NCBI GenBank assembly: GCA_963843795.1 | Contig: CAWJLW010000006.1 | Coordinates: 1,550,001-1,614,000 of the forward strand | Direction: 5' to 3' | DNA from: an uncultured bacterium | GTDB taxonomy: Bacteria > Armatimonadota > Abditibacteriia > Abditibacteriales > Abditibacteriaceae | Length of the DNA: 64,000 bases | Part shown: piece by piece, positions 6,582-60,126 of the stretch | How the letters are laid out: each line of letters begins with the position of its first letter | Position numbering within the stretch: the stretch's first letter is position 1 | Position numbers and translations under genes: made by a program | Notes under the pieces: model-generated | What the model was told of the DNA's origin: nothing | The model's input: the letters and a program-made list of their open reading frames with translations, nothing else | Databases searched by the model: none

Positions 6582-6615
6582 AAAAGCGCGCTGCAAGTAC
6601 TTGCAGCGCGCTTTT
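6582..6615. terminator. 34-bp perfect palindrome/terminator centred on GCAAGTACTTGC
   Basis: AAAAGCGCGCTGCAAGT|ACTTGCAGCGCGCTTTT between convergent genes. Confidence 0.85.
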
Positions 6616-6626
6616 CTCATTAAGTT

Positions 6627-7895
6627 TCACACTGATTCGACGGCTTCTGCAGCTTCGACTCGTGGTGCGCTTTCCAATTCATCCAAACGCGATAATTCGG
6701 GCCAAATTTTGTGTATGGCACCCACACTGAGCAGCGTGCCCGCACCGCCCAAAATAACCGCCAGCGCGGGGCCGAAAAACTTTGCCATCACGCCGCTTTC
6801 AAAATCGCCCATTTCGTTCGACGTGCCAATAAAAACGCTGTTGATGGCCGAAACGCGCCCGCGCATTGCATCGGGCGTGAGAACTTGCACCAAGGTGTGA
6901 CGAATCACGACCGAAATGCAATCGAGCGCGCCGCCGAACAACAGCATCGCGAACGAGAGCACAAAGATATTGGAAAGGCCGAAAACAATTGTCGTCACGC
7001 CAAAACCCGAAACTGCCCACAGCAGTAATCTGCCACTGTTACGAAGCGGCGGCATTGCGGCTAAAGCCAAACTCATTAAAAGCGCGCCGACGGCAGGCGC
7101 AGCGCGCAACCAGCCCAAACCCGACGGCCCAGCGTGCAAAATATCGCGTGCAAAAATCGGTAACAACGAGACTGCACCGCCCAGAAAAACCGCTACCATG
7201 TCGAGCGTAATAGTCGCGGAAAGTAGCGGGTGCGAACGCACAAAACTCCAGCCGGCCAACAGTGAACCCAGCGAGGTTTTCTCTTTGGTTATCTGCTGCG
7301 CGCGCCCACGAATAAACACAATCAAGAGCGCGTTGAATAGCAGCGCGCCCGCTTCCATCCAGTAAACAGGGGCGGCGCGGTGCCAATAAGCCAGTAGCAA
7401 ACCACCCAATGCGGGGCCGCTCATCGAAGCGAGTTGCCAGCGGCTGGTGTTCCACGTCACCGCCGAAGCGAGTTCATTTTCTGGCACCAGTTGAAACATC
7501 CACGCCGAACGCGCCGGTCCTTCGAATGCGCGCGCCGTGCCGCTCAACAAAAGCCACAAATAAAACCAGTGCAGCGCGCCGTTGTTGGCGGAATTAAAAC
7601 CCAGACCAACCATTGCCAGTGCATTACACAACGTGGCAGCCAAAATGATGTGTTTGCGCGAAACACGGTCGGCGACCTGCCCCGCAGGCAAGGCAAGCAA
7701 AATGACCGGCAGCGCTTGCACCAATCCAACCAAGCCCAAAGCGAGCGCGGAATTCGTGCGGTTGTAAAGCTCCCAACCCACCGCGACACCCGCCATGTGC
7801 GAAGTGAGCGCGGAAAAAAAGCCGCCCAGCGAGTACAATTGGAAATCGCGATGGCGCATCGCCGCCAGCGTGTCGCGTCGTTGTGGAGTGGACAT
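6627..7895 (-). CDS. MFS transporter (MFS_3/EntS-like)
   Basis: About 12 hydrophobic segments, AGQVADRVSRK motif A, TPDAMRGRV; start at MSTPQ. Confidence 0.9.
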   Translation of the reverse strand: MSTPQRRDTLAAMRHRDFQLYSLGGFFSALTSHMAGVAVGWELYNRTNSALALGLVGLVQALPVILLALPAGQVADRVSRKHIILAATLCNALAMVGLGFNSANNGALHWFYLWLLLSGTARAFEGPARSAWMFQLVPENELASAVTWNTSRWQLASMSGPALGGLLLAYWHRAAPVYWMEAGALLFNALLIVFIRGRAQQITKEKTSLGSLLAGWSFVRSHPLLSATITLDMVAVFLGGAVSLLPIFARDILHAGPSGLGWLRAAPAVGALLMSLALAAMPPLRNSGRLLLWAVSGFGVTTIVFGLSNIFVLSFAMLLFGGALDCISVVIRHTLVQVLTPDAMRGRVSAINSVFIGTSNEMGDFESGVMAKFFGPALAVILGGAGTLLSVGAIHKIWPELSRLDELESAPRVEAAEAVESV

Positions 7896-7921
7896 GAAAA
7901 AAGAAATTAGTGAGAGAAAAG

Positions 7922-7957
7922 AAATTTGGCCCTGCAAGTACTTGCAGGGCCAAATTT
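7922..7957. terminator. 36-bp perfect palindrome centred on GCAAGTACTTGC, downstream of metF
   Basis: AAATTTGGCCCTGCAAGT|ACTTGCAGGGCCAAATTT. Confidence 0.75.
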
Positions 7958-7978
7958 GGGATTAAAAATCAATCGAGA

Positions 7979-8878
7979 TCAATTTTTTTGTTGCAGCGCT
8001 TGCGTAATTAAGTTGGTGGCCTTAGATTTATTCAGGGTGTAAAAATGCAAACCATCGACGCCCTCGGCCATTAATTCTTCGCACTGCGAAATTGCGTGTT
8101 CGACGCCTGCCGCGTGCACCGACATCGGATCGGATTCCAAACTTTCCATGCGCTGCAACAGCGGATGTGGAATTTTCGCGCCGCACATCGTGACAAAACG
8201 CTTGATTTGCGCCACATTCAAAATCGGCATCAGGCCAGCGACAATCGGCGCCGTAATTCCCATGCCGCGCACTTTGTCGCGCCAGTGCAGAAAATCTTTG
8301 TTATCGAAAAACAATTGCGTGATAACGAACTGCGCGCCTGCATCGAGCTTACGCTGAAGCATTTCAATATCGCGCATCAAATTCAAACACTGCGGATGGC
8401 CTTCGGGGTAACCAGCGACTCCAATACAAAAATCGTGACGCGCCCGCGTGAAACGCACCAAATCGTCGGCGTAATCGAAAGCCTCGGGGCCAGTCGGGCG
8501 CACACCATCGGGCGCATCGCCGCGCAATGCCAGCACGTTGCGAATGCCGCTTTGCCACAGCGTGTCCAGAGCATCGCCCATTTCCTGTCGGGTGTGATGT
8601 GCACAAGTCAGGTGCGACATAGCGCGAAAACCCAGCTCGTTTTGAATTTGCGCGGTCAATTGCAGAGTTTGTGCGGTGCCCGCTCCCGTACGCGTGACCG
8701 AAATAAAATCGGGGCCGAGTGGCTTCAAGTCGTCGATGGCAGCGAAAAGAACATCGCGGGCCGCGTCGTCTTTAGGCGGGAAAAACTCAAAGGAAAGCAG
8801 CGGGCGACCGGCCTGAAAACAAGCGTCGATGCGCGGTTGTTCGGAAGGGGAAATTCGAGAATCGGAATGCAGCTTCAT
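7979..8878 (-). CDS. metF: Methylenetetrahydrofolate reductase
   Basis: SFEFFPPK, HLTC, LALRGD, GYPEGHP, ITQLFFD, HFYTLN. Confidence 0.96.
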   Translation of the reverse strand: MKLHSDSRISPSEQPRIDACFQAGRPLLSFEFFPPKDDAARDVLFAAIDDLKPLGPDFISVTRTGAGTAQTLQLTAQIQNELGFRAMSHLTCAHHTRQEMGDALDTLWQSGIRNVLALRGDAPDGVRPTGPEAFDYADDLVRFTRARHDFCIGVAGYPEGHPQCLNLMRDIEMLQRKLDAGAQFVITQLFFDNKDFLHWRDKVRGMGITAPIVAGLMPILNVAQIKRFVTMCGAKIPHPLLQRMESLESDPMSVHAAGVEHAISQCEELMAEGVDGLHFYTLNKSKATNLITQALQQKN

Positions 8879-9170
8879 AGCTCGCCAGTGTAATGCAAAA
8901 TCCCAGAGCAGGTCTATGCCAAGCGCTTTTTACTGCCTTCACTGTTGCCACTAATGTCTCAGATCGCCATGTTGTCATTGCACAGAGTGCAATCCGCGAT
9001 GAATTCAAGGCAATCAATCACTTTGATTTATTGCACTATGGGTAAAATGTTTCCCAAAATGTTACGAAACGAGATGTTACGGGTATAAGAGATCCCCCTC
9101 GCCCTTGATGTCATTGCGTCAAAAAATAAGGCGACGGCAATCCAATTTAAGTCACAAACTGCGCACACTC

Positions 9171-9926
9171 ATGAAGAATCGTAATTTCAGAAGCCGCTTT
9201 CACGGTTTCACACTCATCGAACTCTTGGTCGTTATTGCCATCATTGCCATTTTAGCGGCGATTTTGTTTCCAGTTTTTGCCCGTGCGCGCGAAAATGCGC
9301 GGCGCGCGAGTTGTTCGAGCAACTTGAAACAGATTGGCTTGGGCTGGCTGCAATATGCGCAAGACTATGACGAAACTGTCGTACCTTATACAAACACTGG
9401 CGGTTCTGGCGGCTATGCTCATGCCTGGACAACGGCGCTGCAGCCGTATTTAAAGAGCACACAAATTATGGTCTGTTCCAGCAAAAGCGATAGAACCGTT
9501 GGATATACCTACAACGCCGAAATTGCGCGTGTTCTGGGTGGCGGCGGGCCGCGTTCGCTGGCTGGCTTTCCTTCGGTCGCACTCACGCCCATCATGATCG
9601 ACGCCGAAGGTGTTTCCTATACGCCCCCTGCTGGTGTTTCGCTTTCCAACGTGAATCAAGCGCTGGGCTTTTTCATCGACAGTGCCTCCGCTGAAGGTAC
9701 GACGGGTCGCCGTTTGAATGACCCCACGAATCTGGCCGGGGGATACGCTACCGACAATGTGGGCCGCATCGCTGCCAACCGCCATCTCGAACAGGCCAAC
9801 TATCTGTTCGCCGATGGTCACGTCAAATCGTTGAAGGGTAACGGAAATAACAGCGTGCGCGCTGCTACCAATGGACTCGATTACAATGGTGACGATGTGT
9901 TAGGCGATACCGTCACGATGCGTTAA
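9171..9926 (+). CDS. DUF1559 prepilin-type N-terminal cleavage/methylation protein with H-X9-DG motif
   Basis: [47 protein letters not shown]. Confidence 0.92.
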
Positions 9927-9951
9927 AAATCAGTCAGATATCTCCGAAAGT

Positions 9952-10005
9952 CAAAGCACAGCGCGCCGCAAGTACTTGTAAGTACTTGCGGCGCGCTGTG
10001 CTTTG
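9952..10005. terminator. 54-bp hairpin containing a tandem doubled core (GCAAGTACTT-GT-AAGTACTTGC)
   Basis: 26-bp perfect arms around a 2-nt spacer, after the prepilin gene. Confidence 0.8.
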
Positions 10006-10145
10006 GTCGTGCGTGATAAAGAAAGGCTTGGGACGACTAAGCTGAGTTGCTTGAGGAATAAATACTTACAAAACCTTTTCCTGAAAATGAATTGATTTGC
10101 TGCAAGATTTCTGCGCTATAATGGGTCTTGGAAAAGGGAGCGAAA

Positions 10146-10550
10146 ATGCTGGACGACAATGAATTTGAGCCGCAATGGTTGAAAGTGGGCGTCGCCGCCG
10201 AACTGGCCAAACGCTACGGAGAAGAAGGTCACGATTTCATGAACGGCCTGGCCCTGATGCTCGAAGGCGCATTGCCCGAGGCCACGCAAATCGAGCGTAG
10301 CGGCAATTGGTTTGGCCCCAAGAAATTGCAGCGCATCATTATTACTTTGAATGATATTCGCTATGTTTTAGCGACTGGCGAACACGGGGCGTTGCAAGCG
10401 ACCTGCACACACATCGTGCGCGGCATCGCTTTGAAAACTGAAACATTTTCGGTTCCCGAGTGGTTGGAACTGCTGGGTGCGGCCTTGCAGGAACGCGCAC
10501 AAACTCACCGCGTCACACGCGAAGCTCTGGCCAACTGGGTCGAAATTTAA
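10146..10550 (+). CDS. Hypothetical protein, first gene of the YbjQ module
   Basis: AAGGGAG RBS; TATAAT at about 10117; 13 nt from the next gene. Confidence 0.75.
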   Translation: MLDDNEFEPQWLKVGVAAELAKRYGEEGHDFMNGLALMLEGALPEATQIERSGNWFGPKKLQRIIITLNDIRYVLATGEHGALQATCTHIVRGIALKTETFSVPEWLELLGAALQERAQTHRVTREALANWVEI

Positions 10551-10563
10551 TTTCTCAACTCTT

Positions 10564-11616
10564 ATGGGACTCTTCGATTTTTTGGGTGCCGCAGACGATG
10601 AACAGTCGCGCCAGATGCAGGAACGGCAGGAGGCCAGCGCGCGCCAAATCGAAGCGGGCGGTTTGCCTTTAAATGCCGTCGAGCGCTTGCAGGAAAACGC
10701 CGCGCGCCAGAATACGCCCGAACATTTATGGACGAGCGATCTCAGTGTCAGCGAACTACTTTTGGTCGAGCAAGCGGGCTTTCAACCATTAGGGCAGGTG
10801 ATGGGCAGCAGCGTTTATCACGTTGGTATTCAGTGGCGCAGTGCGACGTGGAGCAACTCTTACTGGCGCACTGGCGGCGTTTCCCAAGAACTCGAAACTT
10901 TGACGCAAGCGTTTTATAACGCGCGCCATTTGGCCTTGAATCGTTTGGCGCAGGAAGCCGCTTTGTTGGGCGCAACTGCGGTGACCGGCGTGCGTTTGAA
11001 GCATGAGAAAACCGGTTGGGGCGGCGGAATGCTGGAATTTTCGGCCATCGGCACCGCGATTCGTGAAGATGATATAAAAGTGAATAATGACTCGCACGCT
11101 CCGCCGTTGCTGCGTCCCGGCAGCACAGCGCAAAGCAGTTCGAGCACCACGCCGAGCTTATGTCTGAGCGATTTATCGGCGCAGGATTTTTGGAAATTGC
11201 GCGCAGCGGGCTTTCGACCGGTTGGCATCGCGGTCGGCAACTGCACCTATTACACAATTCCCAGTTGGAATACGCAAAACATTACCAACGGCGGATTTTT
11301 TAACAGCGGCTCGTGGCAAAATGTCGAACTGCCCGATTACACGCAGGCTTTGTATGCGGCGCGCGAGCTGGCGATGGGACGCATGGAGAATGAAGCACGA
11401 ACGGTCGGTGCGCGTGGCGTGGTCGGTGTTACGGTCGATATGGATGCCGAAGTTCAGGAAACTGAAGTCAATAATCGCACGCGCGTCGATATGCTGTTTC
11501 ATTTCACAGCTATCGGAACCTCCATCGCACCCTTTACGAGAGCCACGCCACTGGCTATCAATTTGAATCTGTCGTTGCGACGTGGCGTTTCAAGCGACGC
11601 ACTCGATTTGAAATAA
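10564..11616 (+). CDS. Tandem YbjQ/UPF0145 (putative heavy-metal-binding) domain protein
   Basis: Two repeats of SDLS...G..P.G...G / AR.LA..R...EA...GA..V.GV / F.AIGT.I. Confidence 0.85.
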   Translation: MGLFDFLGAADDEQSRQMQERQEASARQIEAGGLPLNAVERLQENAARQNTPEHLWTSDLSVSELLLVEQAGFQPLGQVMGSSVYHVGIQWRSATWSNSYWRTGGVSQELETLTQAFYNARHLALNRLAQEAALLGATAVTGVRLKHEKTGWGGGMLEFSAIGTAIREDDIKVNNDSHAPPLLRPGSTAQSSSSTTPSLCLSDLSAQDFWKLRAAGFRPVGIAVGNCTYYTIPSWNTQNITNGGFFNSGSWQNVELPDYTQALYAARELAMGRMENEARTVGARGVVGVTVDMDAEVQETEVNNRTRVDMLFHFTAIGTSIAPFTRATPLAINLNLSLRRGVSSDALDLK

Positions 11617-11636
11617 CGTATTTCCCAAGAGAATTT

Positions 11637-12455
11637 ATGACTTATACACCCGGTTCTAGCGAAGGTTTGCCCCAATCGGCGCAACAGCGTTTGCAAGCAA
11701 TGCGCGGCAGTTCAACGCAGCGCGGTTTATTTACTTCAGACTTATCGGTGAATGAATTTTTGTTGGTGCGCGAGGCCGGTTTCGATCCTCTGGGTTTAGT
11801 AATGGGCAGCTCGATTTATCATATCGGCTTTCAATTTTCCAACTTCTTCAAAAATCAGGAAATGGAAGTATTGACACAGGCGATGTATCACGCCCGTGAA
11901 CTCGCGATGACGCGCATGGAAGAAGAAGCGGATTTGCTGGGCGCCGATGGCGTCGTTGGTGTGCGCCTGACTGTAAATCGTTATGCGTGGGGCGAGCATC
12001 TGGCCGAATTTATGGCGATTGGCACCGCGATCAAACATCGCACCGGCGAGCCGTATCGCACTGTCGATAACCGGCCATTCACTTCCGATTTGAATGGGCA
12101 AGATTTCTGGACGTTGCTGCGCGCCGGCTATCGTCCAGTTTCCATGGTAATGGGAACTTGCGTATATCACGTCGCGCATCAGGGCATGATGCAATCGCTG
12201 GGTCAAATGGGTCGTAACGTCGAAATGCCTAATTATACGCAAGCGCTTTATGACGCGCGCGAACTTTCGTTATCGCGTATGCAGGCCGAAGCGGAAAGCG
12301 CGCAGGCCGAAGGCATCGTGGGCGCGCAAGTAAAGGAATCGAGTCACGGCTGGGGCAGTCACGTCGTCGAATATTTCGCCATCGGCACAGCGATTTCAGC
12401 GATTTCCGACGATCATTCGATTCCCACGCCCACGCTCACATTGCCGCTGGGTTAA
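11637..12455 (+). CDS. Tandem YbjQ/UPF0145 domain protein, paralog of the upstream gene
   Basis: FTSDLSVNEFLLV, ARELAMTRMEEEADLLGADGVVGV, FMAIGTAI, repeated twice. Confidence 0.88.
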   Translation: MTYTPGSSEGLPQSAQQRLQAMRGSSTQRGLFTSDLSVNEFLLVREAGFDPLGLVMGSSIYHIGFQFSNFFKNQEMEVLTQAMYHARELAMTRMEEEADLLGADGVVGVRLTVNRYAWGEHLAEFMAIGTAIKHRTGEPYRTVDNRPFTSDLNGQDFWTLLRAGYRPVSMVMGTCVYHVAHQGMMQSLGQMGRNVEMPNYTQALYDARELSLSRMQAEAESAQAEGIVGAQVKESSHGWGSHVVEYFAIGTAISAISDDHSIPTPTLTLPLG

Positions 12456-12533
12456 CGCAAGTTTTCACAGGAAATTCTCAGCCTAAAATTTTTCATTGAG
12501 GCAAGCAGCGAATAATTTGAATCGCAAAGAACT

Positions 12534-12563
12534 AAATGCCCCGCAAGTACTTGCGGGGCATTT
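12534..12563. terminator. 30-bp perfect palindrome centred on GCAAGTACTTGC
   Basis: AAATGCCCCGCAAGT|ACTTGCGGGGCATTT followed by T. Confidence 0.75.
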
Positions 12564-12625
12564 TCTGTCGCTTGTTACACTGCGAAGTTCTTAAAATTCT
12601 CATACAAGTACTTGGAGTGTGTGTT

Positions 12626-13984
12626 GTGGCTTTGAAAATGGAAGATATTGTCTCGCTGTGCAAGCGGCGTGGTTTCGTATTTCAGTCGAGCGAAATTTAT
12701 GGTGGCTTCGCCAGTTGTTGGGATTATGGCCCGCTGGGTGTTGAACTCAAACGCAACGTGAAAGACGCGTGGTGGCAAAGCGTTGTCCACGAGCGCGACG
12801 ATATGGTCGGTCTGGATTCGAGCATTTTGATGCACCCCAAAATCTGGGAAGCCAGCGGCCACATCGCCACTTTTAACGATCCATTGGTTGATTGCAAAAC
12901 CTGTAAAGGCCGTTTTCGCGCCGATCATCTGGGCACCACGCAGTGTCCGCTCAAGCCTTCGAAATTGGCGGGCGAAGCCGAGCAATGTGAGCTAACCGAA
13001 GCGCGTTTGTTCAACTTGATGTTCAAAACTCACGTCGGGCCGGTCGAGCGCGACGACGATTCCAACGTCGCGTATTTGCGGCCCGAAACTGCGCAGGGCA
13101 TCTTCGTCAACTTTCCCAACGTGGTGAATTCTTCGCGCAAAAAGCTGCCCTTTGGCATTGCCCAAATTGGCAAAGCGTTTCGCAACGAAATCACGCCCGG
13201 CAATTTCACGTTTCGCACGCGCGAATTCGAGCAGATGGAAATCGAGTATTTCTGCCGCCCTGAAGACGCCCCGCGCTTGCATGAAGAGTGGATTCAGGCG
13301 CGCTACAACTGGTATTTGAATCTGGGTATGACGCAGGCGAACTTGAGCTTGCGTCCGCACGACAAAGACGAATTGGCGCACTACGCTCAAAGCGCGGAAT
13401 CGACGGGCACGACCGACATTGAATATCAGTTTCCGTTTATGGAAGAGCCGGCGGAGCTGGAAGGCATCGCCAATCGCGCCGACTTCGATTTATCGCAGCA
13501 CGCCAAATTTTCGGGCCAGAAAACGACTTGGTTCGATCAAGAGCGCAACGAACACATCACGCCTTATGTGATCGAACCTTCGGCGGGCGCCGACCGCGCG
13601 ACTTTGGCGTTTCTGGTCGATGCCTATCACGAGGAAGAAGTCAAACCCGGCGACACGCGCGTGGTTTTGAAGCTGCATCCCAAACTTGCGCCGACCAAAG
13701 TCGCGATTTTGCCCTTGTTGAAAAAGCGCGACGACATTGTTCAAATCGGGCGCGAACTGACCGCTGATTTGCGTCGCAAGACTGTCGCGGTTTACGACGA
13801 TACGGCGGGCATCGGCAAATTGTATCGCCGTCAGGATGAAGTTGGCACGCCCTATTGCATCACGGTTGACGTCGATACGATTACCGACCGCGCAGTCACA
13901 ATTCGTGACCGCGACACGATGGCTCAAGAGCGTGTGAGTTTGGATCAAATTAAGAACTACGTGTTAGATAAATTGGACGTTTGA
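12626..13984 (+). CDS. glyQS: Glycine--tRNA ligase, alpha2 dimeric type
   Basis: LCKRRGFVFQSSEIYGG, YLRPETAQGIF, FRNEITPGNFTFRTREFEQME, IGKLYRRQDEVGTP; GTG start after GGAG. Confidence 0.96.
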   Translation: MALKMEDIVSLCKRRGFVFQSSEIYGGFASCWDYGPLGVELKRNVKDAWWQSVVHERDDMVGLDSSILMHPKIWEASGHIATFNDPLVDCKTCKGRFRADHLGTTQCPLKPSKLAGEAEQCELTEARLFNLMFKTHVGPVERDDDSNVAYLRPETAQGIFVNFPNVVNSSRKKLPFGIAQIGKAFRNEITPGNFTFRTREFEQMEIEYFCRPEDAPRLHEEWIQARYNWYLNLGMTQANLSLRPHDKDELAHYAQSAESTGTTDIEYQFPFMEEPAELEGIANRADFDLSQHAKFSGQKTTWFDQERNEHITPYVIEPSAGADRATLAFLVDAYHEEEVKPGDTRVVLKLHPKLAPTKVAILPLLKKRDDIVQIGRELTADLRRKTVAVYDDTAGIGKLYRRQDEVGTPYCITVDVDTITDRAVTIRDRDTMAQERVSLDQIKNYVLDKLDV

Positions 13985-13994
13985 AAAAGTTGTC

Positions 13995-14032
13995 CACACA
14001 AGGCTCTGCAAGTACTTGCAGAGCCTTGTGTG
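13995..14032. terminator. 38-bp perfect palindrome centred on GCAAGTACTTGC
   Basis: CACACAAGGCTCTGCAAGT|ACTTGCAGAGCCTTGTGTG right after the glyQS stop. Confidence 0.7.
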
Positions 14033-14081
14033 TGGATTTGAAGTGTGGTGAAGGTTCTCAATTTGCTGTAAGTGACGGTTT

Positions 14082-15080
14082 GTGAATAATTCCAATCCAG
14101 CACCGAAAATTCCTATCATTCCTTTGCGCGATCAATCTCCCGCCGCCGCTTCCAACGATGAAGCCAATGTGCCACAGTTACCGCAGCCGATTTCGCTTTT
14201 GATTAACGCGAATTCGCGCCGTGGCAAAGAAGCTTTCGACGATGCGATCGCGGCCTTAAAAAAAGCGCGTATACCCTTGAAGCGCGCAGTCGCTGTTAGC
14301 GATAAGGATGAAACCGCGCAACTATTGCGCGAAGAAGTCGAGGACGGCGCCCGATTGGTAATTGTTGGCGGCGGCGATGGCACGCTTTCCTACTGCGCCG
14401 AACTGCTGGCCGGAACCCAAACCGCGATGGCCGTATTGCCACTGGGCACTGGCAATACCTGGGCGCGCTCACTGGGTTTGCCGATTGATCTGGCAAAGGC
14501 TGCCGAAGTCATCGCCAAGGGCCACATCGAAAACAGCGATGTCGGACGCGTGAATGGACACGTTTTTCTCAATTCTGTCGCGCTGGGTTTGTCGTGCGAA
14601 ATCGCGCAATCGCTGGATAAAAAAACTAAAAGCAAGTTGGGTTTAATGGCGTGGCCCGTTGTTGGAGCCCGCGTTTTATGGAAGCACAAACCACTGCAAA
14701 TTGAAGTCATTTCCAGCGAACGCACTTATCGCGTGCGCACGCACCAAATTCTGATCGTGAATGGACGATATGTCGCTGGCCCAATTACCGCCGCGCCCGA
14801 TGCGTCGATTCAAGACGCCACGCTGGATGTTTTTACGCTGGGTGGCGCAAAATTTCGCAGTTTGATTAAAACTTCGTGGAAATGGATGCGCGGCCAGCAC
14901 TTGCAAGATGCGCAAACCAAATTTTTCAGCACACAGCGCGTCCAAATTCGTTCGATGCGCAAGCCGATTGATGTCGCAGTCGATGGCGAAATCGAGTTTC
15001 AAACTCCGCTCGATATCGACGTATGGCCCGGTGCGCTCAAAGTCGTTGTGCCACGTGGCTTTGAAGCCCAAAAAGCGTGA
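14082..15080 (+). CDS. Diacylglycerol/lipid kinase family protein (YegS/DAGK)
   Basis: GGGDGT, LPLGTGN, NGRYVAG, VDGE. Confidence 0.92.
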   Translation: MNNSNPAPKIPIIPLRDQSPAAASNDEANVPQLPQPISLLINANSRRGKEAFDDAIAALKKARIPLKRAVAVSDKDETAQLLREEVEDGARLVIVGGGDGTLSYCAELLAGTQTAMAVLPLGTGNTWARSLGLPIDLAKAAEVIAKGHIENSDVGRVNGHVFLNSVALGLSCEIAQSLDKKTKSKLGLMAWPVVGARVLWKHKPLQIEVISSERTYRVRTHQILIVNGRYVAGPITAAPDASIQDATLDVFTLGGAKFRSLIKTSWKWMRGQHLQDAQTKFFSTQRVQIRSMRKPIDVAVDGEIEFQTPLDIDVWPGALKVVVPRGFEAQKA

Positions 15081-15087
15081 ATATCAA

Positions 15088-15133
15088 AAATCAAAAGCGC
15101 GCGTGCAAGTACTTGCACGCGCGCTTTTGATTT
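15088..15133. terminator. 46-bp perfect palindrome centred on GCAAGTACTTGC
   Basis: AAATCAAAAGCGCGCGTGCAAGT|ACTTGCACGCGCGCTTTTGATTT between convergent genes. Confidence 0.85.
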
Positions 15134-18261: not shown

Positions 18262-18323
18262 CCCTAAAAAGAGAAAAGCCGTCCCTGCAAGTACTTGCAG
18301 GGACGGCTTTTCTCTTTTTAGGG
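18262..18323. terminator. 62-bp perfect loop-less palindrome centred on GCAAGTACTTGC
   Basis: CCCTAAAAAGAGAAAAGCCGTCCCTGCAAGT|ACTTGCAGGGACGGCTTTTCTCTTTTTAGGG fills almost the whole convergent intergenic gap. Confidence 0.88.
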
Positions 18324-26918: not shown

Positions 26919-26950
26919 AAATCGCCCTGCAAGTACTTGCAGGGCGATTT
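26919..26950. terminator. 32-bp perfect palindrome centred on GCAAGTACTTGC
   Basis: AAATCGCCCTGCAAGT|ACTTGCAGGGCGATTT followed by T. Confidence 0.8.
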
Positions 26951-30285: not shown

Positions 30286-30325
30286 GGCTTCAATGTGCTG
30301 CAAGTACTTGCAGCACATTGAAGCC
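30286..30325. terminator. 40-bp perfect palindrome centred on GCAAGTACTTGC (no U tract), just before tRNA-Met
   Basis: GGCTTCAATGTGCTGCAAGT|ACTTGCAGCACATTGAAGCC. Confidence 0.55.
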
Positions 30326-38214: not shown

Positions 38215-38250
38215 AAAAACCGCTCTGCAAGTACTTGCAGAGCGGTTTTT
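38215..38250 (-). terminator. 36-bp perfect palindrome centred on GCAAGTACTTGC, terminator of rplL
   Basis: AAAAACCGCTCTGCAAGT|ACTTGCAGAGCGGTTTTT. Confidence 0.85.
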
Positions 38251-42502: not shown

Positions 42503-42542
42503 AAAAGTTTCGAGATGCAAGTACTTGCATCTCGAAACTTTT
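42503..42542 (-). terminator. 40-bp perfect palindrome centred on GCAAGTACTTGC, after cysS
   Basis: AAAAGTTTCGAGATGCAAGT|ACTTGCATCTCGAAACTTTT. Confidence 0.82.
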
Positions 42543-51706: not shown

Positions 51707-51718
51707 CCATGTCGACTT

Positions 51719-51756
51719 AAAAACGCCCGCTGCAAGTACTTGCAGCGGGCGTTTTT
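51719..51756 (+). terminator. 38-bp perfect palindrome centred on GCAAGTACTTGC
   Basis: AAAAACGCCCGCTGCAAGT|ACTTGCAGCGGGCGTTTTT. Confidence 0.85.
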
Positions 51757-51792
51757 GGTTTATGAGTGGCTCAATCGGGCAAACTGTGAGGT

Positions 51793-53823: not shown

Positions 53824-53840
53824 CAAAGCTTTCGTAGTGC

Positions 53841-53866
53841 GCTGCAAGTACTTGCAGCACGTTTTT
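53841..53866 (+). terminator. Short core-centred hairpin followed by a T tract
   Basis: GCTGCAAGTACTTGCAGC-ACGTTTTT. Confidence 0.55.
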
Positions 53867-53883
53867 GTCTATAATTCCATCGT

Positions 53884-54921
53884 ATGAACACAAACATCAA
53901 TTTTACAATCGCAAAGGATGCCGTCGATCCCGCTCAAGTGCCGACGCGCACGTTATCCAGTGGCGCGAAAATTCCCGCCATCGGTTTGGGCACCTTTGGC
54001 TCGGATTTGTATCAGGGCGAAGAAATCGCCAGCGCCGTCATCGAAGCCGCCAGCGTCGGTTATCGCCATTTCGACTGCGCGGCGGTTTACGGCAATGAAC
54101 ATCTTATCGGGCAGTCGCTACAAACGATTATGAATGGCGGCATTGCGCGTGAAGAATTGTGGATTACATCCAAACTTTGGAACGATAAGCATGATGAAAA
54201 CGATGTAATTGCGGCCTGTCAAAAATCGTTGCGCGATTTGGGATTGGAAACGTTAGATTTATATCTGGTACATTGGCCGTTTCCCAATTATCACGCGCCC
54301 GGATGCGATGTTAACGCGCGCAATCCTGATGCAAAACCTTATATCCACGAAAATTTCATGAAGACGTGGCGGCAAATGGAAAAGCTGGTTGAAATGGGTT
54401 TGGTGCGCCACATCGGAAGCTCGAATATGACAATTCCCAAGCTCGAACTTCTGCTGCGCGATGCCAAAATTGCACCCAGTTGCAACGAATTGGAATTGCA
54501 TCCCCATTTCCAACAGCCTGAACTATTCGCTTGGCTGCGCGATCACGACATTGTGCCGATTGGTTATTCACCCATTGGCTCGCCCAAACGTCCCGCCCGC
54601 GACACCACGCCCGATGATACAGTTGACATTGAAGACCCAGTTATTGTCGAAATCGCTGCGCGTTTAGATTTGCATCCCGCATCTTTGTGTGTGAAATGGG
54701 CACAGCAACGCGGCCAGATTCCGATTCCATTTTCGACCACGCGCCGCAATTATTTGAGCAATTTGCAAAGCGTAGTAGGGCCGCCACTTTCGGATGACGA
54801 TATGAAAGCGATTGCACAAATTGATAAAGATTGTCGTTTGATTAAAGGTCAGGTTTTCCTGTGGCGCGACAATCAGGATTGGCGTGATTTGTGGGACGAA
54901 GATGGCACAATTGCGCAGTAA
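53884..54921 (+). CDS. Aldo/keto reductase
   Basis: IPAIGLGT, GYRHFDCAAVYGNE, DLYLVHWP. Confidence 0.94.
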   Translation: MNTNINFTIAKDAVDPAQVPTRTLSSGAKIPAIGLGTFGSDLYQGEEIASAVIEAASVGYRHFDCAAVYGNEHLIGQSLQTIMNGGIAREELWITSKLWNDKHDENDVIAACQKSLRDLGLETLDLYLVHWPFPNYHAPGCDVNARNPDAKPYIHENFMKTWRQMEKLVEMGLVRHIGSSNMTIPKLELLLRDAKIAPSCNELELHPHFQQPELFAWLRDHDIVPIGYSPIGSPKRPARDTTPDDTVDIEDPVIVEIAARLDLHPASLCVKWAQQRGQIPIPFSTTRRNYLSNLQSVVGPPLSDDDMKAIAQIDKDCRLIKGQVFLWRDNQDWRDLWDEDGTIAQ

Positions 54922-54925
54922 AATA

Positions 54926-54975
54926 TAGAAATGAAAAGCGCGCTGCAAGTACTTGCAGCGCGCTTTTCATTTCTA
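54926..54975. terminator. 50-bp perfect palindrome centred on GCAAGTACTTGC
   Basis: TAGAAATGAAAAGCGCGCTGCAAGT|ACTTGCAGCGCGCTTTTCATTTCTA between convergent genes. Confidence 0.87.
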
Positions 54976-54984
54976 ATCCACCGA

Positions 54985-57018
54985 TTATTTCATCGTGGGA
55001 ATGTAAGCATCGAGCTTTTTCGGCTGGCCGATTTTTACCAGAATCGCGCCATGTGGCGGCACTTCGGTGGTGAACGCTTCGCGCGCTTTGGCGAGATCTT
55101 TCTGCTGCCACAGATCGCGCACCGGCTGCGCGCCTTGCAATTTCAAATCGCTCCATTTCGCCGTCACTTTTTGGTTTTCGGTGCTGCGATTAAAAAGGCC
55201 AACAGCGATGGTGCCATCCCATAGCGGGCGCATCCAGACTTCGGTTTCATCGCCTTTCCACACGCGATGACCCTGAATTCCCAGCGGGTCTTGATCGACA
55301 TCAATTACTTCATCGTTGCTGAGGGCGTTAATGGTAAACGGTGTCACTTTTGACAAATCGCTGCCAATGAGAAGCGGTGCGGCGAGAATGCTCCACAATG
55401 AAAGATGAGTAATCTGTTCGGTCGGCTGCAGCGCGTGCATGAACAGCATATCGGGATCGTTCCAGTTGCCGGGTTTGGCATAGGGGAACTGCCAGGTTTG
55501 ACCGAAACCGATGCCCGCCATGCTGCCATACGACGGCCCGATGTCGCCGGTCGTGCGCCACAAATTACCATGAACTTGGTCGCCCCATTTGGGCACTTCG
55601 GCCATGCCATACTGGCACAAGCTGTAAACGATATCGCGTGGCGCGTTGCTGAGTAAGTCGCCCATCACACGATAGGGCTTTTGTTGTTTTTCCAGTTCTG
55701 GCATGGTCTGCTTGGCCGCGATGCCGCCATAGGAACACCAATCATATTTCAAGTAATCGACGCCCCATTTCGCATATGTCGCCACATCTTGAGCTTCATG
55801 TTCCCATGAGCCATCGTAACCGGCACAGGTTTTCGGCCCGGGCGAAGAATAAATGCCAAATTTGAATCCCATCGCGTGCAAGCGCTCGCCCAGCACTTTC
55901 ATGTCGCCAAACTTTTGGTTGACGCCAATTTCTCCGTTCGCCAAGCGCGGGGCTTGCCAGCAATCGTCGATATTAACGTATTGATAACCGTGATTAATCA
56001 AACCGGTTTTCACCAACCAATCGGCGGCTTCTCGCACTTTTTTCTCATCAACGTTGCAATAATAAATGTTCCACGAGTTCCAGCCCATCGGCGGGGTAAG
56101 CGCCAGTTTGTCTTTGCCTCCGACAATCGTGAGTTTGCGCGAGGTAGTTCCACGTTCGCCTTTTACGCTCAAAGTCGTAACCGTAACGCCGTTTTTTTGT
56201 AGGCTGCCAGAGATAATGCCGGTTTGGGCGTCGATAGTTAAACCAGCGGGCAAATTTTTGGCGCTATATTGCAATGTCCCAAGACCAGTGGCGGGCACTT
56301 TAAATAAAAACGGGCGGCCCGGCGTGGCGCCGGTGATGCGCGCTCCGTGAATTCGCGGTGCAGCGGGCAAGGTCATCGCAATGGGCGGAGGCGGCGTATC
56401 GATAACCGATGATTTCAGCAGTTGAGGTTTTTGGGCGGAGTTAGGTAGCAGTTTCAGTAACGCCCCGGCCCAGTCGGCGTGGTCGGAGTCGATACCATCG
56501 TTGCCATCGGTGACGCGGAGTGTGAGCTTTTTAGCTCCGGTGAGATCGACCGAGAACAAATGCGGCGCTTGCTTGCCTTTGAGAATGCCGCTGCGAGCGA
56601 CGGTTTTGCCATCGACCCTCACCAGAAATTCGACCGAACCATTACCATTTTTCTCATCATCGACACCGGCCATCGCTATGAAGCGCGTAGCAACACCTTT
56701 CAGGTCGATACTGATTTCGCTGCGCGCGTGAGTTCCGATGCCGTGTGGATAAGTTTTGCCGGAAAGCATCAGCGGATTAGCATCGACCGACAACTTCGAT
56801 TGGGCCTTGCCGTATTCCTGATCGATAAGGCTCAGATTCAGCGTATCGAGCCAGAGCGCATTATCGGGCGTGGTGTTGGCTTGTGCCAGCGCCTCATCGG
56901 TTTCCATGTTTTGCGCAACGCAGTTCACAGTCAACGGCGCGCTCGCCAACATTAGAGCACAGGCCGTCCAGTGCTTCGCAACCTTTTTTCGTCCACCAAA
57001 TTCCAACGCATTTGCCAT
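54985..57018 (-). CDS. GH27 alpha-galactosidase with NPCBM/NEW2 and Ig-like domains
   Basis: TPPMGWNSWN, NIDDCWQ, DYLKYDWC, WRTTGDI, WNDPDML; GIGTHA...DHADW. Confidence 0.93.
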   Translation of the reverse strand: MANALEFGGRKKVAKHWTACALMLASAPLTVNCVAQNMETDEALAQANTTPDNALWLDTLNLSLIDQEYGKAQSKLSVDANPLMLSGKTYPHGIGTHARSEISIDLKGVATRFIAMAGVDDEKNGNGSVEFLVRVDGKTVARSGILKGKQAPHLFSVDLTGAKKLTLRVTDGNDGIDSDHADWAGALLKLLPNSAQKPQLLKSSVIDTPPPPIAMTLPAAPRIHGARITGATPGRPFLFKVPATGLGTLQYSAKNLPAGLTIDAQTGIISGSLQKNGVTVTTLSVKGERGTTSRKLTIVGGKDKLALTPPMGWNSWNIYYCNVDEKKVREAADWLVKTGLINHGYQYVNIDDCWQAPRLANGEIGVNQKFGDMKVLGERLHAMGFKFGIYSSPGPKTCAGYDGSWEHEAQDVATYAKWGVDYLKYDWCSYGGIAAKQTMPELEKQQKPYRVMGDLLSNAPRDIVYSLCQYGMAEVPKWGDQVHGNLWRTTGDIGPSYGSMAGIGFGQTWQFPYAKPGNWNDPDMLFMHALQPTEQITHLSLWSILAAPLLIGSDLSKVTPFTINALSNDEVIDVDQDPLGIQGHRVWKGDETEVWMRPLWDGTIAVGLFNRSTENQKVTAKWSDLKLQGAQPVRDLWQQKDLAKAREAFTTEVPPHGAILVKIGQPKKLDAYIPTMK

Positions 57019-57100
57019 ATTCGGTTTCTCCTTGAGCGCCGCTACAATACGGTCGCGCGGCTTAGTTTAATGACGAAAATAGGCTGCGACAGATTTATTT

Positions 57101-58876
57101 TCAGGACACGAAATCAGGCGCAATGTCTTCCGACACAAGATTTTCGGGAGTGATTTTTTCAGACGCGTCGCTTGTCCTATCATCCTGAATTCCGGCGACC
57201 GGCAAATTATGCAGTCCGGTAAAAATATGCTGATGCGGCAATCCGAGCAGCAAAAGCGTTTCTTCCAGCAGCATCAGCGCCCCTGCGACTTCGGGGATTA
57301 CGACCGCCGTCGCACCGGCGCGACGCAATTTGACATCGTTTTCGGTGCGCTGAGCGCGCGCCACAATTAAAATTTCGGGGTTGGACTGCCGAACATTATG
57401 AACCACAGCGCGCGTTGAACCAAAATCGGGCAGCGCCACAACGACCAGGCGCGCGCGTTCGGGATGTGCGGCTTCGAGGACATTCCGATACGAGGCATCG
57501 CCATAAATCGCGGGCAAACCTTCGGCAATAATTTCGCGCACTAAATTCAATTCTTGTTCGATGATGAGAACCGGCAAACCGGCCTGTCGCATTCCGCGCG
57601 CCATACGTTCGCCGACGCGTCCGTAGCCCACGATGATGGCATGGTTCTCCAATGCGGGAATGGGCGGTATTAAGGGCGCGCGCGCGCTCATCAAACGATT
57701 GAGAAAAGTCATTTTAGCAAGCGCGCGTCCGACACGTGGTGCGACCCAGAAAGCCAAAGGCGCACACAAAATCGTCACCAATGCCGCCGATAAAATCAGG
57801 TTATACAATCCCCTGGGAATCGCGCCCGCTTCCAAACCAGCGCGCGCTAATACGAAGTTAAATTCGCCAATCGAAATCATGCCCAGAGAAGCAAACGCGG
57901 TTGTTTTTTGCCCTAGACGAAACGGCAAAAGCGCCAGACCGGTCAAAAGTGCTTTGGCCACCATAATGAACAACGCCATTCCAAGAACGGCAGGCAAATG
58001 GGCGATAATAAAGCGCACATCAATCAGCATTCCCACCGAAACGAAAAACAGCGTGGCGAACAAATCGCGCATCGGCACCATCTCGGCCATGATGCGATGA
58101 TCGAATTCCGTTTCGGTCAACATCAGACCCGCCATAAACGCACCCAAGGCGGGCGATAATCCCAACAACGCGCTGGCCGAAGCCGTACCCAATGCCAAAA
58201 CCACCGCAGTCAACAAGAACAGTTCAGCAGATTGCAATTGTTCGACGCGCGCCATCAGCGCGGGCACGACGCGCGCCCCTAAAAATAGCGTGACAGCGAT
58301 AAACGCTACCGCTTTGAAAGCAACCCACAAAAAATCCTGAGCGCTGCCTCCGCCCTGACCGGACAATTTTGGCAGCAATAAAATCAACAAAACAACGACC
58401 AAATCTTGCACGATAAGCATTCCCAACAATAAGCGCCCATGATTGGAAGCGATTTCGCCGCGATTCATCAAGTTCTTCAAAATTACCATCGTGCTGCTGA
58501 TGCTGATGATGCCGCCGAAAAATACGCTGCGCGCAAGCGGCCAGCCCAAAACATGACCCAGCGCGGTTCCCGCCAGCAAAATCGAAAACACTTGAACGGT
58601 GGTGCCGATAACTGCTGGCCCTTTAATGCGCGCCAATTCTTTGAGCGAAAACTCGATGCCCAACGCGAACATCAAAAAGAGCACGCCGATTTCGGCCAAA
58701 ACCGCGATTTGTTCTCGGTCGGCCACAAAGCCAGGCGTGAACGGCCCAATCGCCATGCCCGCAACCAGATAACCGATAATAGGCGACTGACGCAACCAGT
58801 GAGCGACCAGGCCGCCGGAAAGCGCTACCATGATGGCCACAGTGAGCGAAACGATCAGTTCAAGTTCGTGATTCAT
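57101..58876 (-). CDS. CPA2 cation:proton antiporter with TrkA-N domain (YbaL/KefB-like)
   Basis: EIGVLFLMFALGIEFS, LIVQD, LGAFMAG, IIVGYGRVG. Confidence 0.92.
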   Translation of the reverse strand: MNHELELIVSLTVAIMVALSGGLVAHWLRQSPIIGYLVAGMAIGPFTPGFVADREQIAVLAEIGVLFLMFALGIEFSLKELARIKGPAVIGTTVQVFSILLAGTALGHVLGWPLARSVFFGGIISISSTMVILKNLMNRGEIASNHGRLLLGMLIVQDLVVVLLILLLPKLSGQGGGSAQDFLWVAFKAVAFIAVTLFLGARVVPALMARVEQLQSAELFLLTAVVLALGTASASALLGLSPALGAFMAGLMLTETEFDHRIMAEMVPMRDLFATLFFVSVGMLIDVRFIIAHLPAVLGMALFIMVAKALLTGLALLPFRLGQKTTAFASLGMISIGEFNFVLARAGLEAGAIPRGLYNLILSAALVTILCAPLAFWVAPRVGRALAKMTFLNRLMSARAPLIPPIPALENHAIIVGYGRVGERMARGMRQAGLPVLIIEQELNLVREIIAEGLPAIYGDASYRNVLEAAHPERARLVVVALPDFGSTRAVVHNVRQSNPEILIVARAQRTENDVKLRRAGATAVVIPEVAGALMLLEETLLLLGLPHQHIFTGLHNLPVAGIQDDRTSDASEKITPENLVSEDIAPDFVS

Positions 58877-59096
58877 AAAATCAATAGAAATTAATGCTAT
58901 TTACAATGAATGAGGATACAACAAGCGCAAAATCGACTTGCAAATGCCTGAGCAGGTTACTTGCCTTTTCAATTTTGCCAGAAAAACAGTGATTTCTTAT
59001 ACTGGAATTCCAAGCAACGCCGTGACAATTTGGACGTTGTTGATGGCAAAGCAAATCGTTGTGCAATTTGTCCGGTGCAGTGCTGTGGAGAGAAAA

Positions 59097-59675
59097 ATGA
59101 CAATTAGAAACCAACTTTTGGGGACATTTCTAGCCAGCTCGGTGGCGGCCATTGCGCTGGGCGTTTATATCAGCGATCCGACTGCACAGGCCAGCAATTT
59201 CAACGCAAATCGCGACACAACTTCGCAAACAGCCCAACCATCGATCGAAAAAGCTCAATCTGCGAACAACCAAACCGAAGCCAAGCCCACCAAAACAGAA
59301 GCGGCGATAATAACGAAAATTGCTTGGCAGCCGGATTTTGTCACTGCGCAACGCGTTTCCAAAACGAGCGACAAACCCCTGATGATCGTTTTCGGCGCTG
59401 AGTGGTGTGGCGCTTGTAAAATGCTGGAAAAGAATACTCTGTCTAATGTGAGCGTAGTTGAAGCCGCTCAAAACTGGGTTGCGGTCGAAATCGACGTGGA
59501 CAAAGAACCTGAACTCGCCGCGCGATATGGAATCAAAAGCCTCCCGACAACGGTGTTCTTCAAAGGCGATAGCAAGAAATTTGGCTTTGTCGGAGCCGCA
59601 GGGCCAGAAGATATGCTCAACGTGATGCAAACGGCGCGCGCCAAGTTACAGGGCGCACCGGCCTCGCAAAGCTGA
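59097..59675 (+). CDS. Exported thioredoxin family protein
   Basis: Signal/anchor sequence, WCGAC, cis-Pro SLPT. Confidence 0.85.
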   Translation: MTIRNQLLGTFLASSVAAIALGVYISDPTAQASNFNANRDTTSQTAQPSIEKAQSANNQTEAKPTKTEAAIITKIAWQPDFVTAQRVSKTSDKPLMIVFGAEWCGACKMLEKNTLSNVSVVEAAQNWVAVEIDVDKEPELAARYGIKSLPTTVFFKGDSKKFGFVGAAGPEDMLNVMQTARAKLQGAPASQS

Positions 59676-59761
59676 TAGCAGACCAACACACCTATTTCCA
59701 AACCTATTCCATCGTGATTTGAGCCAGAAGCTCGAGCCGATTCATTTTAAAGGAGACACAC

Positions 59762-60073
59762 ATGAAGAAGACATTGTTTTTTGCAGGTGCTGCGTTGCTG
59801 ATGGCGTCTTGCACACTGCCCGTTCAAGCGGCTCCGGCCAAAACCAAAGCCCCCGCCAAAACATCCAAGACCAAAATCACCGAAGTCAAAGTCTGTCCGA
59901 TAACGATGGAGCCGGTGGTTGGCAAAGGTGCAGGTTCGCAGGTCATGGGCGACAAGCGCGTCTATTTCTGCTGTGAAGGTTGTCAGCCCGCTTTTAACAA
60001 ACTGCCCAAAGGCGAGCAAGCCAAAAAGCTCAAAGCGGCAACGGAAAAGCAGAACGCAAAGAAAAAAGGCTGA
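59762..60073 (+). CDS. Secreted YHS/TRASH-like small protein
   Basis: AAGGAG RBS, signal peptide, CPIT...YFCCEGC. Confidence 0.8.
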   Translation: MKKTLFFAGAALLMASCTLPVQAAPAKTKAPAKTSKTKITEVKVCPITMEPVVGKGAGSQVMGDKRVYFCCEGCQPAFNKLPKGEQAKKLKAATEKQNAKKKG

Positions 60074-60086
60074 GCAACAACAAAAT

Positions 60087-60126
60087 CAAAACAACGCCCT
60101 GCAAGTACTTGCAGGGCGTTGTTTTG
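60087..60126. terminator. 40-bp perfect palindrome centred on GCAAGTACTTGC
   Basis: CAAAACAACGCCCTGCAAGT|ACTTGCAGGGCGTTGTTTTG between convergent genes. Confidence 0.85.

Follow-up and report, generated by a model that had tools for sequence, protein, structure and literature searches.

Predicted intrinsic terminators with a genome-wide palindromic tag at their apex in a genome of the Abditibacteriaceae

The origin of terminators without many coordinated mutations is usually explained by the co-option of paired uptake sequences, as set out in PMC1852404. In the Neisseria DUS and the Pasteurellaceae USS, for which uptake specificity has been demonstrated, the word is non-palindromic, and two inverted copies make a near-invariant stem around a variable loop. 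HIP1 (GCGATCGC) of cyanobacteria is a hyper-abundant palindrome that is kept in place, occurs in all reading frames and has lineage variants (PMC4390886, PMC5861425, bioRxiv 2024.09.10.611283, PMC13756078); the word 'terminator' is absent from the main text of PMC5861425 and PMC4390886. Template switching in replication perfects inverted repeats, and in quasi-palindrome correction it makes or extends them in one step and yields de novo hairpins (PMC5941160, PMC10710096). The sections of both papers used here draw no tie to a dispersed tag or to terminators, a word that occurs 0 times in PMC5941160.

The window analysed here is a stretch of 64,000 nucleotides from one MAG of the Abditibacteriaceae. 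From the sequence, 13 palindromes in it are predicted to act as intrinsic terminators, often in both directions, and each carries a genome-wide DNA tag at its apex. REP/BIME elements, which have a RAYT transposase, are extragenic palindromes past gene ends in hundreds of copies, and chromosome-domain sites of the SlmA, Noc and matS type occur in tens of copies confined by chromosome region.

The palindromes of the window

The initial annotation had described 13 perfect palindromes with the axis AGT|ACT; all 13 were recovered exactly, and their common core (the tag) is the self-complementary 12-mer GCAAGTACTTGC. Terminators were predicted in a scan blind to the tag, with a scoring formula and our own gene calls; random axes gave 1 false call in 800. 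The palindromes predicted as bidirectional terminators are the 34-bp one at 6582–6615, which has the commonest arm and lies between convergent genes with stops 9 and 11 nt away; the 46-bp one at 15088–15133 (stops 7 and 11 nt away), where mirroring extends beyond the T-run; the 62-bp one at 18262–18323, which fills its convergent spacer (stops 3 and 7 nt away); the 50-bp one at 54926–54975 (stops 4 and 9 nt away); and the 40-bp one at 60087–60126 (stops 13 and 3 nt away). Predicted plus-strand terminators are located at 12534–12563 (30 bp, 78 nt past the upstream gene and ahead of glyS), 26919–26950 (32 bp, 13 nt downstream of a cruF-like gene) and 51719–51756 (38 bp, 12 nt downstream of an FAD oxidoreductase gene), and minus-strand ones at 7922–7957 (36 bp, 21 nt downstream of metF, 7979–8878, minus strand) and 38215–38250 (36 bp, 23 nt downstream of rplL). 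The call is marginal for the minus-strand 40-bp palindrome at 42503–42542, 2 nt downstream of cysS and before a tRNA cluster. The exceptions to calls at 11 of the 13 sites are the plus-strand 38-bp palindrome at 13995–14032, 10 nt downstream of glyS, with a weak U-tract, and the 40-bp palindrome at 30286–30325, which has no U-tract and is followed 9 nt on by a tRNA gene (30335). Rfam matches in the window were 5 tRNAs and nothing else.

The window holds 38 exact cores, the 13 long ones (30–62 bp) and 25 short ones (12–22 bp) in spacers and genes between 16721 and 62638 (starts 16721, 17242, 18819, 19933, 21264, 22717, 24328, 25822, 28695, 31054, 36269, 37288, 40597, 44074, 45291, 45653, 47895, 47988, 49278, 49780, 53202, 53841, 61852, 62333 and 62627). 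At 9952–10005 the sequence reads as a hairpin with 26-bp arms, a 2-nt centre and a doubled, partly degenerate core, likely the product of an off-axis mirror copy; the initial annotation had overlooked it. A perfect 36-bp palindrome at 4333–4368, a predicted minus-strand terminator, has no core, which shows that mirroring can do without the tag.

The tag across the genome and its share of predicted terminators

Genome-wide, GCAAGTACTTGC occurs in 2,567 exact copies against about 7 expected (order-5 model, core masked), and 757 of these (30%) are inside coding DNA. Only 3 symmetric double mutants of the core were found. Contig C6 carries 47–83 cores per bin in 35 of 36 full 100-kb bins and 30 in the first; this spread differs from the region-restricted placement of SlmA-, Noc- or matS-type sites. 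Cores are spaced a little more evenly than at random (CV 0.89), and no kb-scale periodicity of core pair distances was visible by eye. Two 26-kb islands lack the tag (the transposases of the first were judged by eye from protein starts), and contigs C3 and C4 carry 74 and 239 copies per Mb against 629, a depletion in recently acquired DNA of the DUS/USS kind. Even within genes the tag is flanked by GC-rich sequence and by A/T tracts at intervals of about 10 bp; A/T peaks near +9, +20 and +30 are present at coding and divergent sites too.

The inverted-repeat search and the count of terminators with the core that the initial annotation had proposed gave large shares: of the 802 perfect palindromes whose arms reach at least 10 bp, 717 are centred on GCAAGTACTTGC, and it forms the apex in 425 of the 797 unique terminators predicted. 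An exact core lies anywhere in 492 of the 797, and a core within one edit in 575. The proposal that most terminators carry the core thus stands narrowly and only in silico; most cores are not in terminators, and the initial annotation had not recognised the core as a genome-wide tag. Arm lengths of core palindromes are bimodal, with modes at 6 and 17 bp. Arms of at least 14 bp surround 499 of the 2,567 cores, while 2,068 form no long palindrome.

The term 'loop-less' is true of the DNA only, since the RNA is folded with a 4-nt GUAC loop and an A-U closing pair. Apex-core terminators have a mean stem of 11.4 bp, the 4-nt loop and about −20 kcal/mol, and the T-run is located at the end of the GC-rich stem; GC-rich stem, short loop and U-tract are the features of intrinsic terminators. 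Their placement just past gene ends, with convergent enrichment, is also that of intrinsic terminators: the share of cores with arms of at least 13 bp is 186 of 295 for convergent spacers, 300 of 1,246 for tandem spacers, 24 of 264 for divergent spacers and 13 of 757 for coding DNA, and the axis is at most 60 nt from a stop at 416 of 467 long sites. In tandem spacers the T-tail is only weakly favoured over the A-tail (3.81 vs 3.61 with p=0.025, and p=0.07 in a 5-nt test). Position and structure support the annotation's reading of a DNA signal that is also a predicted terminator, and one sequence likely serves as both DNA label and gene stop signal.

Mirroring of the arms and conservation in relatives

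Swapping left and right flanks among sites left 7.5 long palindromes in convergent spacers, where 184 of 295 were observed, and 2.8 in tandem spacers, where 283 of 1,246 were observed. A mirror excess was also present in coding DNA (31 vs 5.1 expected) and in divergent spacers (45 vs 5.3). Of 277 hairpins whose arms match without error through the T-run, 112 continue the mirror by at least 2 bases, 71 by at least 4 and 34 by at least 8, where permutation gives 24.6, 2.3 and 0.2; half of these additional bases are G/C. Terminated RNA would lack them, which favours template switching in replication over RNA selection alone. Tandem sites with 0, 1 and 2 arm mismatches number 264, 53 and 40, perfect arms lying far above near-perfect ones. 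Exact doubled cores occur 27 times genome-wide, 19 with mirrored arms; the spacing is 12 bp in 14 of the 19, which would fit a template switch on GCGC microhomology. One mirror copy made in silico turned 404 of 760 short tandem cores into scored terminators, against 195 of 800 random intergenic axes. No leading- or lagging-strand bias of long tags was found (119/520 vs 104/459, p=0.94). Mirroring beyond the T-run was also found without the tag, in this genome (32 vs 1.8) and in relatives (7 vs 1.7; permutation maximum 6), and a pattern scan of GTDB gave at least 36 loci in unrelated taxa, one match each among the matches listed, 7 of the 36 listed chance matches being in palindromes of at least 32 bp. 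The tag is therefore not needed for mirroring.

Congeners share 70–81% identity. In congener K (70% identity), gene ends were paired by protein anchoring; of 111 orthologous ends, 4 were long in both genomes, 12 long here and short in K, and 6 the reverse. K has the tag at 16 of 26 sites that are long here, against 67 of 111, so long status does not predict it. Between K and M we found short/long switches, one doubled core and one paired G>A/C>T change; no one-step mirror event between close strains was seen. The alternation of short and long forms at orthologous tags supports the proposal that the core is a seed of terminators. At 81% identity the tag is conserved at 35 of 45 aligned sites, against 30% for all 8-mers and 43 of 167 for other palindromic 8-mers; it is kept in place as HIP1 is. 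The proposed insertion of the core gained no support: 44 of 52 coding cores align with orthologs without a nearby gap, indicating that they were written into genes by substitution.

The core of the same hairpins in congener G001 is a dialect, CAAAGTACTTTG. The tag is absent from other genera of the family, which already have long mirrored terminators; the outer architecture of these is matched by the hairpins described here. Such stems, in tag-free relatives and in tag-free terminators of this genome, argue against the core as their explanation; the tag probably acts as a seed of new terminators and also writes over the apices of old ones. Among the genomes searched the tag is limited to this genus: no hyper-abundant palindromes were found in samples of 55–120 kb from G002–G005, and the 10-mer CAAGTACTTG has at most 19 copies in any of 250 other genomes of a phylum sample. 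A viral scan gave 6 loci with 1–2 eight-mers each, hence no tag-rich phage among them. Sequencing runs X2 and X3 gave distant matches only; run X1 contains the organism at ≥99% identity, thinly and patchily covered, and is possibly the source sample. No such 12-mer or described tag system was found in the literature searched, the main texts of mostly open-access papers.

Origin, role and relation to known systems

We consider it probable that these predicted terminators, which carry a genome-wide tag at the apex, acquired their site-specific arms through a single mirroring event, a template switch in the course of replication, the palindromes at gene ends then being retained by selection. Because the order of tag and flanks is A-tract, GC-rich stretch and core, one mirror copy would give both strands a GC-rich stem, the GUAC loop and a U-tract. 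By a second route the tag probably also overwrites the apex of long-stem terminators that already existed in the family. Ordinary selection on RNA, in which compensatory point mutations build and maintain the stems, selection favours or permits the tag at the apex and no special DNA copying is required, would explain why long stems cluster in convergent spacers and past stops; 11-bp stems are already favoured in the family, and the mismatch rate is alike in arms and core (about 1% per base). It is nevertheless improbable given the mirroring well beyond the U-tract and in coding and divergent regions, the preponderance of perfect arms and the doubled cores with mirrored arms. G-U mismatches slightly exceed A-C ones, as such selection would predict, but not significantly (43 vs 32, p=0.25; 14 vs 10 in a second count), and G-U pairs occur in 32 of 425 apex-core terminators against 84 of 267 tag-free ones. 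We give equally little credence to another main role, as cruciform or high-affinity DNA sites for a reader or as RNase III or 3'-stabilising hairpins of Rho-terminated transcripts, with termination incidental. The palindromes are perfect, A/T-centred and up to 78 bp long, the tail asymmetry is weak, a usable U-tract is absent at 2 of the 13 window sites, each of 28 genomes of the order has Rho, and RNase III and SbcCD homologs are present in this genome; TRIT and Correia elements have been interpreted as RNase III substrates (PMC13714241). Against it stand the strong convergent-over-divergent bias, the position about 20–60 nt past stops, the T-run at the stem end and the outer architecture shared with the terminators of tag-free relatives.

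A mobile palindrome of the REP/MITE kind, spread by a RAYT or another transposase and then diverged, is highly improbable. One 34-bp form has 39 copies, one 8-nt arm occurs 53 times against 20 expected from the arm profile, and a RAYT-like gene is present. The 39 copies, though, share no flank or target duplication by eye, and the arms are locus-specific, as the initial annotation had claimed, with 264 distinct 8-nt arms among 499 sites and 202 singletons. That annotation had itself raised one or two REP-like arm families with a RAYT as the contrary outcome, which was not what we found: beside the sole RAYT, which has an in-frame stop, lie GTAG REPs of an unrelated kind (15 copies) that carry no core. 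Coding cores arise by substitution, and arms are GC-rich and consensus-like at short sites as well. With no GTAG foot, homologous arms, RAYT-flanking repeat or insertion found, such an origin is largely refuted. An artefact of assembly or polishing that perfected the hairpins has a negligible probability. The genome is a single MAG, X1 is possibly its source, and no listed X1 piece spans a window palindrome with both flanks; against this, G001 shows the same architecture around another core, metagenome contigs show it for at least two more species, and the whole 34-bp palindrome occurs on X1 contigs with other flanks. These independent assemblies refute an artefact.

For the role of the tag, our best guess, held at somewhat less than even confidence and ahead of the other two, is by analogy a label for DNA uptake or recombination of the USS/HIP1 type; ComEC, ComEA and DprA are present, as they are in tag-free genera. 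A nucleoid organiser site is a doubtful candidate, and a methylation-linked ratchet more doubtful still; the family has a conserved beta-class MTase, and GTAC is depleted family-wide. The putative reader would be a protein, probably dimeric. It is conceivable, if rather unlikely, that this is a third independent genome-wide self-tag system, in which a putative protein bound to the tag halts the replication fork and provokes a template switch right there, yielding ready-made bidirectional terminators. If so, one mutational step would be enough to gain or lose a termination site at any place where the tag lies behind a gene. With about 500 long sites and 2,000 short ones in a single genome, together with its congeners and with tag-free sister genera as controls, a template-switch origin of terminators is directly testable.

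Compared with known systems, the tag differs from REP/BIME elements in that a GTAG foot is absent, the arms are not shared between copies and 30% of the cores are coding; the genome's own REPs are a separate family. With HIP1 it shares hyper-abundance, conservation in place, occurrence in all reading frames, lineage variants, a 4-mer basis (here GTAC) and a family with a conserved orphan methyltransferase, which is at most a candidate for the cognate enzyme; it is another sequence, neither GCGATCGC nor a described variant, has 12 bp with an A/T centre, and belongs to one genus, not a phylum. Hyper-abundant palindromic tags now extend beyond cyanobacteria into a little-studied lineage. With DUS and USS, short words of >1,000 copies in genes and spacers (PMC1852404 and PMC13714241), it shares a copy number of about 1,000 or more with few one-off variants, A/T-rich extended flanks in helical phase also outside terminators, enrichment in tail-to-tail spacers, dialects between species and presence in much of the predicted terminator set (55% in Neisseria, 53–72% here). 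Uptake specificity is demonstrated for those words and putative for the tag, which belongs to a different phylum. In the tag's hairpins the loop and the inner part of the stem come from a single palindromic copy, and each site has an outer stem of its own. By analogy, the system would work like the uptake-sequence terminators of Neisseria and Pasteurellaceae, but with one HIP1-like apex palindrome in place of two stem copies: a second geometry for terminator origin, with a single palindromic tag at the apex and arms apparently copied in one step.

The tag and its distribution

All 13 window palindromes, which the initial annotation had read as terminators built on or invaded by a common core, were identical to their own reverse complement, and their shared centre was the 12-mer GCAAGTACTTGC (the core, or tag). 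The window contained 38 exact copies of GCAAGTACTTGC, 25 of them short (12-22 bp). In the genome holding the window (G000; 4.30 Mb, 11 contigs) there were 2,567 copies against about 7 expected, evenly distributed along the main contig (C6), and any single one-mismatch variant reached at most 68. Our self-trained gene calling gave 3,488 genes (86% coding), with RNA genes left out. By these calls, coding sequence held 757 copies and contig edges 5; tandem spacers held 1,246, convergent spacers 295 and divergent spacers 264. Arm length had two peaks, 6 and 17 bp. The core formed the centre of 717 of the 802 perfect palindromes whose arms reached at least 10 bp. Short coding and divergent copies retained a GC-rich flank with A/T peaks near +9, +20 and +30, resembling the extended USS as outlined in PMC1852404. 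The tag was absent from two 26-kb islands. One, G000:C6:56010-82495, appears transposase-rich; the other, G000:C6:517680-543429, is lower in GC and has a gene with an N6-methyltransferase motif. The 288 poly-A/T 12-mers in G000 (unplaced) suggest at least one long homopolymer run in the assembly.

Among the genomes searched the tag is confined to the genus. One named entry in a protein cluster of this family is an 'Abditibacteriota bacterium', and the family is probably Abditibacteriaceae. AAGTACTT occurred 2,965 times in G000, 2,725 times in its congener G001 and 0-59 times in each of 26 other genomes of the order; CAAGTACTTG had at most 19 copies in any of 250 other genomes of a phylum sample not including G001. 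G017 and G012 (genus g6) held 58-59 copies of AAGTACTT against 0-22 in other tag-free genomes, locally clustered in G017 (e.g. C26, C50), and three of four whole genomes of genus g5 had none. G001 used the dialect CAAAGTACTTTG in the equivalent hairpins. At least two further species, K and M, are known from metagenome contigs; about 70% identical to G000, they carried a looser form of CAAGTACTTG with a density near 1.1 per kb. Their loci were picked by a 22-bp palindrome, which biases the arm lengths seen in them. K and M share 81% identity, and of 45 aligned tag sites 35 were conserved between them, compared with 30% of all 8-mers. Five short metagenome contigs (L173, L175, L176, L159, L179) showed no alignment to G000 yet bore its dialect, densely on L173 and L176, the latter with nine eight-mers in 5 kb and encoding tape-measure, primase and DnaB-like proteins. 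Mobile elements belonging to the genus may pick up the tag.

Predicted core-centred terminators

A scan for a hairpin followed by a U-tract, blind to the core, yielded terminator calls for 1,038 of 2,908 gene ends of G000, with the core at the apex in 581. Merging two-way calls gave 797 predicted hairpins: 425 with the core at the apex, 67 with it elsewhere (doubled cores in most of 30 examples listed), 38 near-core and 267 without it. The exact core was present in 492 of the 797 and a core within one edit in 575, against about 0 of 305 in the shuffled control; random axes scored as terminators once in 800 (the false-call rate). The claim that most terminators carry the core thus stands as an in silico count, at 53-72% of predicted hairpins. 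The description "loop-less" does not apply to the RNA, which is predicted to fold into a hairpin whose 4-nt GUAC loop sits on an A-U closing pair. Loops of 4 nt or less were found in 34/52 E. coli terminators and 65/97 of tag-free relatives. Perfect DNA symmetry was found in 348/420 core terminators versus 16/345 tag-free ones of G000, 5/97 in relatives and 2/52 in 400 kb of E. coli. The unusual feature of core terminators is perfect DNA symmetry, not the short loop.

In the direction of transcription, tRNA genes have a long palindrome just upstream at two places in the window (30286-30325 and 42503-42542); these palindromes may serve in processing or in parting the tRNA from the upstream gene.

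Origin of the palindromes

As initially proposed, arms mostly differed between loci: 499 long sites (arms of at least 14 bp) had 264 different 8-nt arms, 202 of them singletons, and random pairing of left and right arms yielded 9 long palindromes. The commonest form was over-represented (39 copies), and by eye no shared flanks or target duplication were seen at these copies. The lone Y1 transposase match in G000 was a RAYT-like gene (L093:1098-1900; G000:C6:~751650-752450) that is interrupted in frame by a stop at codon 18. GTAG-footed REPs lie on either side of it as inverted pairs; their 15 close copies in G000 all lacked the core. A REP/RAYT mobile repeat, the refuting case named at the outset, was rejected outright, since the arms form no homologous families and the RAYT is tied to separate, core-less REPs. 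Insertion of the core, also suggested initially, was not supported by coding cores: 44 of 52 aligned to orthologs without a gap inside 6 nt, which indicates that the tag was written by substitution.

In 277 hairpins the symmetry was perfect through the T-run; of these, 112 mirrored at least 2 further bases, 71 at least 4 and 34 at least 8 (permutation: 24.6, 2.3 and 0.2). A transcript ending in the U-tract would lack these bases in either direction. Zero-mismatch sites far outnumbered one- and two-mismatch sites, arms showed no significant excess of G-U pairs, and the mirror excess was found also in coding and divergent regions. Bacterial inverted repeats are reported to be made perfect by template switching (PMC5941160; PMC4060949), which is also reported to form hairpins in a single step (PMC10710096). 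G000 contained 27 doubled cores, 19 with mirrored arms, 14 of those at 12-bp spacing. Such a product would be expected from a strand switch that used the GCGC microhomology immediately beyond the core; slippage would probably have no microhomology available for it. Evidence that the tag plays no special part in mirroring comes from run-on mirroring in tag-free terminators (32 versus 1.8 by permutation in G000; weaker, 7 versus 1.7, maximum 6, in relatives), from chance core matches in unrelated genomes (7/36 long palindromes, among the matches listed) and from the lack of leading/lagging strand bias of long tags in G000.

Among the matches listed, L009, L013, L021, L023, L025, L026 and L030 were single 32-44 bp perfect palindromes with the same centre, in unrelated genomes including Neisseria, Sinomonas, Lentzea and Hymenobacter; the Neisseria arms resembled DUS (its sequence taken from PMC1852404). 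At G000:C4:10126-10330, four perfect palindromes (28-58 bp) had differing arms and the common centre TATA|TATA. On one side of them is an HTH gene, on the other a module of serine recombinase, ParA and RHH genes, adjoined by a type I restriction gene; the region looks like the origin of a plasmid or prophage, a resolution site or a hairpin-end region.

The core had been proposed as the seed of terminators. A tag beside a gene end could, by mirror copying of its flank, yield a new hairpin; when one mirror copy was made in silico, 404 of 760 short tandem cores scored as terminators (27 did so already), compared with 195 of 800 axes drawn at random from intergenic DNA, which supports seeding. Alternatively, substitutions could place the tag at the apex of an older long-stem terminator. 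Terminators of tag-free genera already show 11-bp stems and short loops together with the same outer arms, so that such overwriting is likely besides seeding. Orthologous gene ends were paired by best tblastn match, a few being paralogs. Between G000 and K (n=111), 4 were long/long, 12 long/short, 10 long/none, 6 short/long, 10 none/long, 22 short/short and 47 other. Long/long ends numbered 3/55 between G000 and M and 0/27 between G000 and G001, indicating that long forms turn over quickly. K and M differed by three short/long switches in intergenic-looking sequence, one doubled core with added mirror and two palindromes in M only; two long arms were in common, one of them showing paired substitutions, G>A/C>T.

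Candidate readers and known systems

ComEC was found in 28/28 and ComEA in 26/28 genomes of the order, and DprA in 4/5 tested, too widespread to discriminate between tag-bearing and tag-free genomes. An orphan beta-class DNA methyltransferase (G000:C6:2517365-2518135) had 58-74% identical matches in all eight relatives' loci picked for it, which come from five genera of the family. Its best structural relatives were M.RsrI and entries labelled only "Methyltransferase", which we take to be M.BceJIV (GTWWAC). GTAC is depleted family-wide. It was absent from 55 kb of G005, another genome of the order (L057-L060), and CTAG was nearly absent too across much of the family. As HIP1 is reported to raise transformation in a way that depends on methylation (bioRxiv 2024.09.10.611283; PMC13756078), a role of the tag in DNA uptake or recombination is our leading guess.

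DUS occurs in 55% of Neisseria terminators (PMC1852404), and DUS/USS terminators have 3'-end support, as reported in PMC13714241. The core terminators predicted here would work like these, and the tag behaves like HIP1 as portrayed in PMC5861425 and PMC4390886. On sequence and geometry, however, the tag belongs neither to DUS/USS nor to HIP1, and the core palindromes fall wholly outside REP/RAYT. In the papers searched (main texts, open access) we found no account of core-tag terminators.
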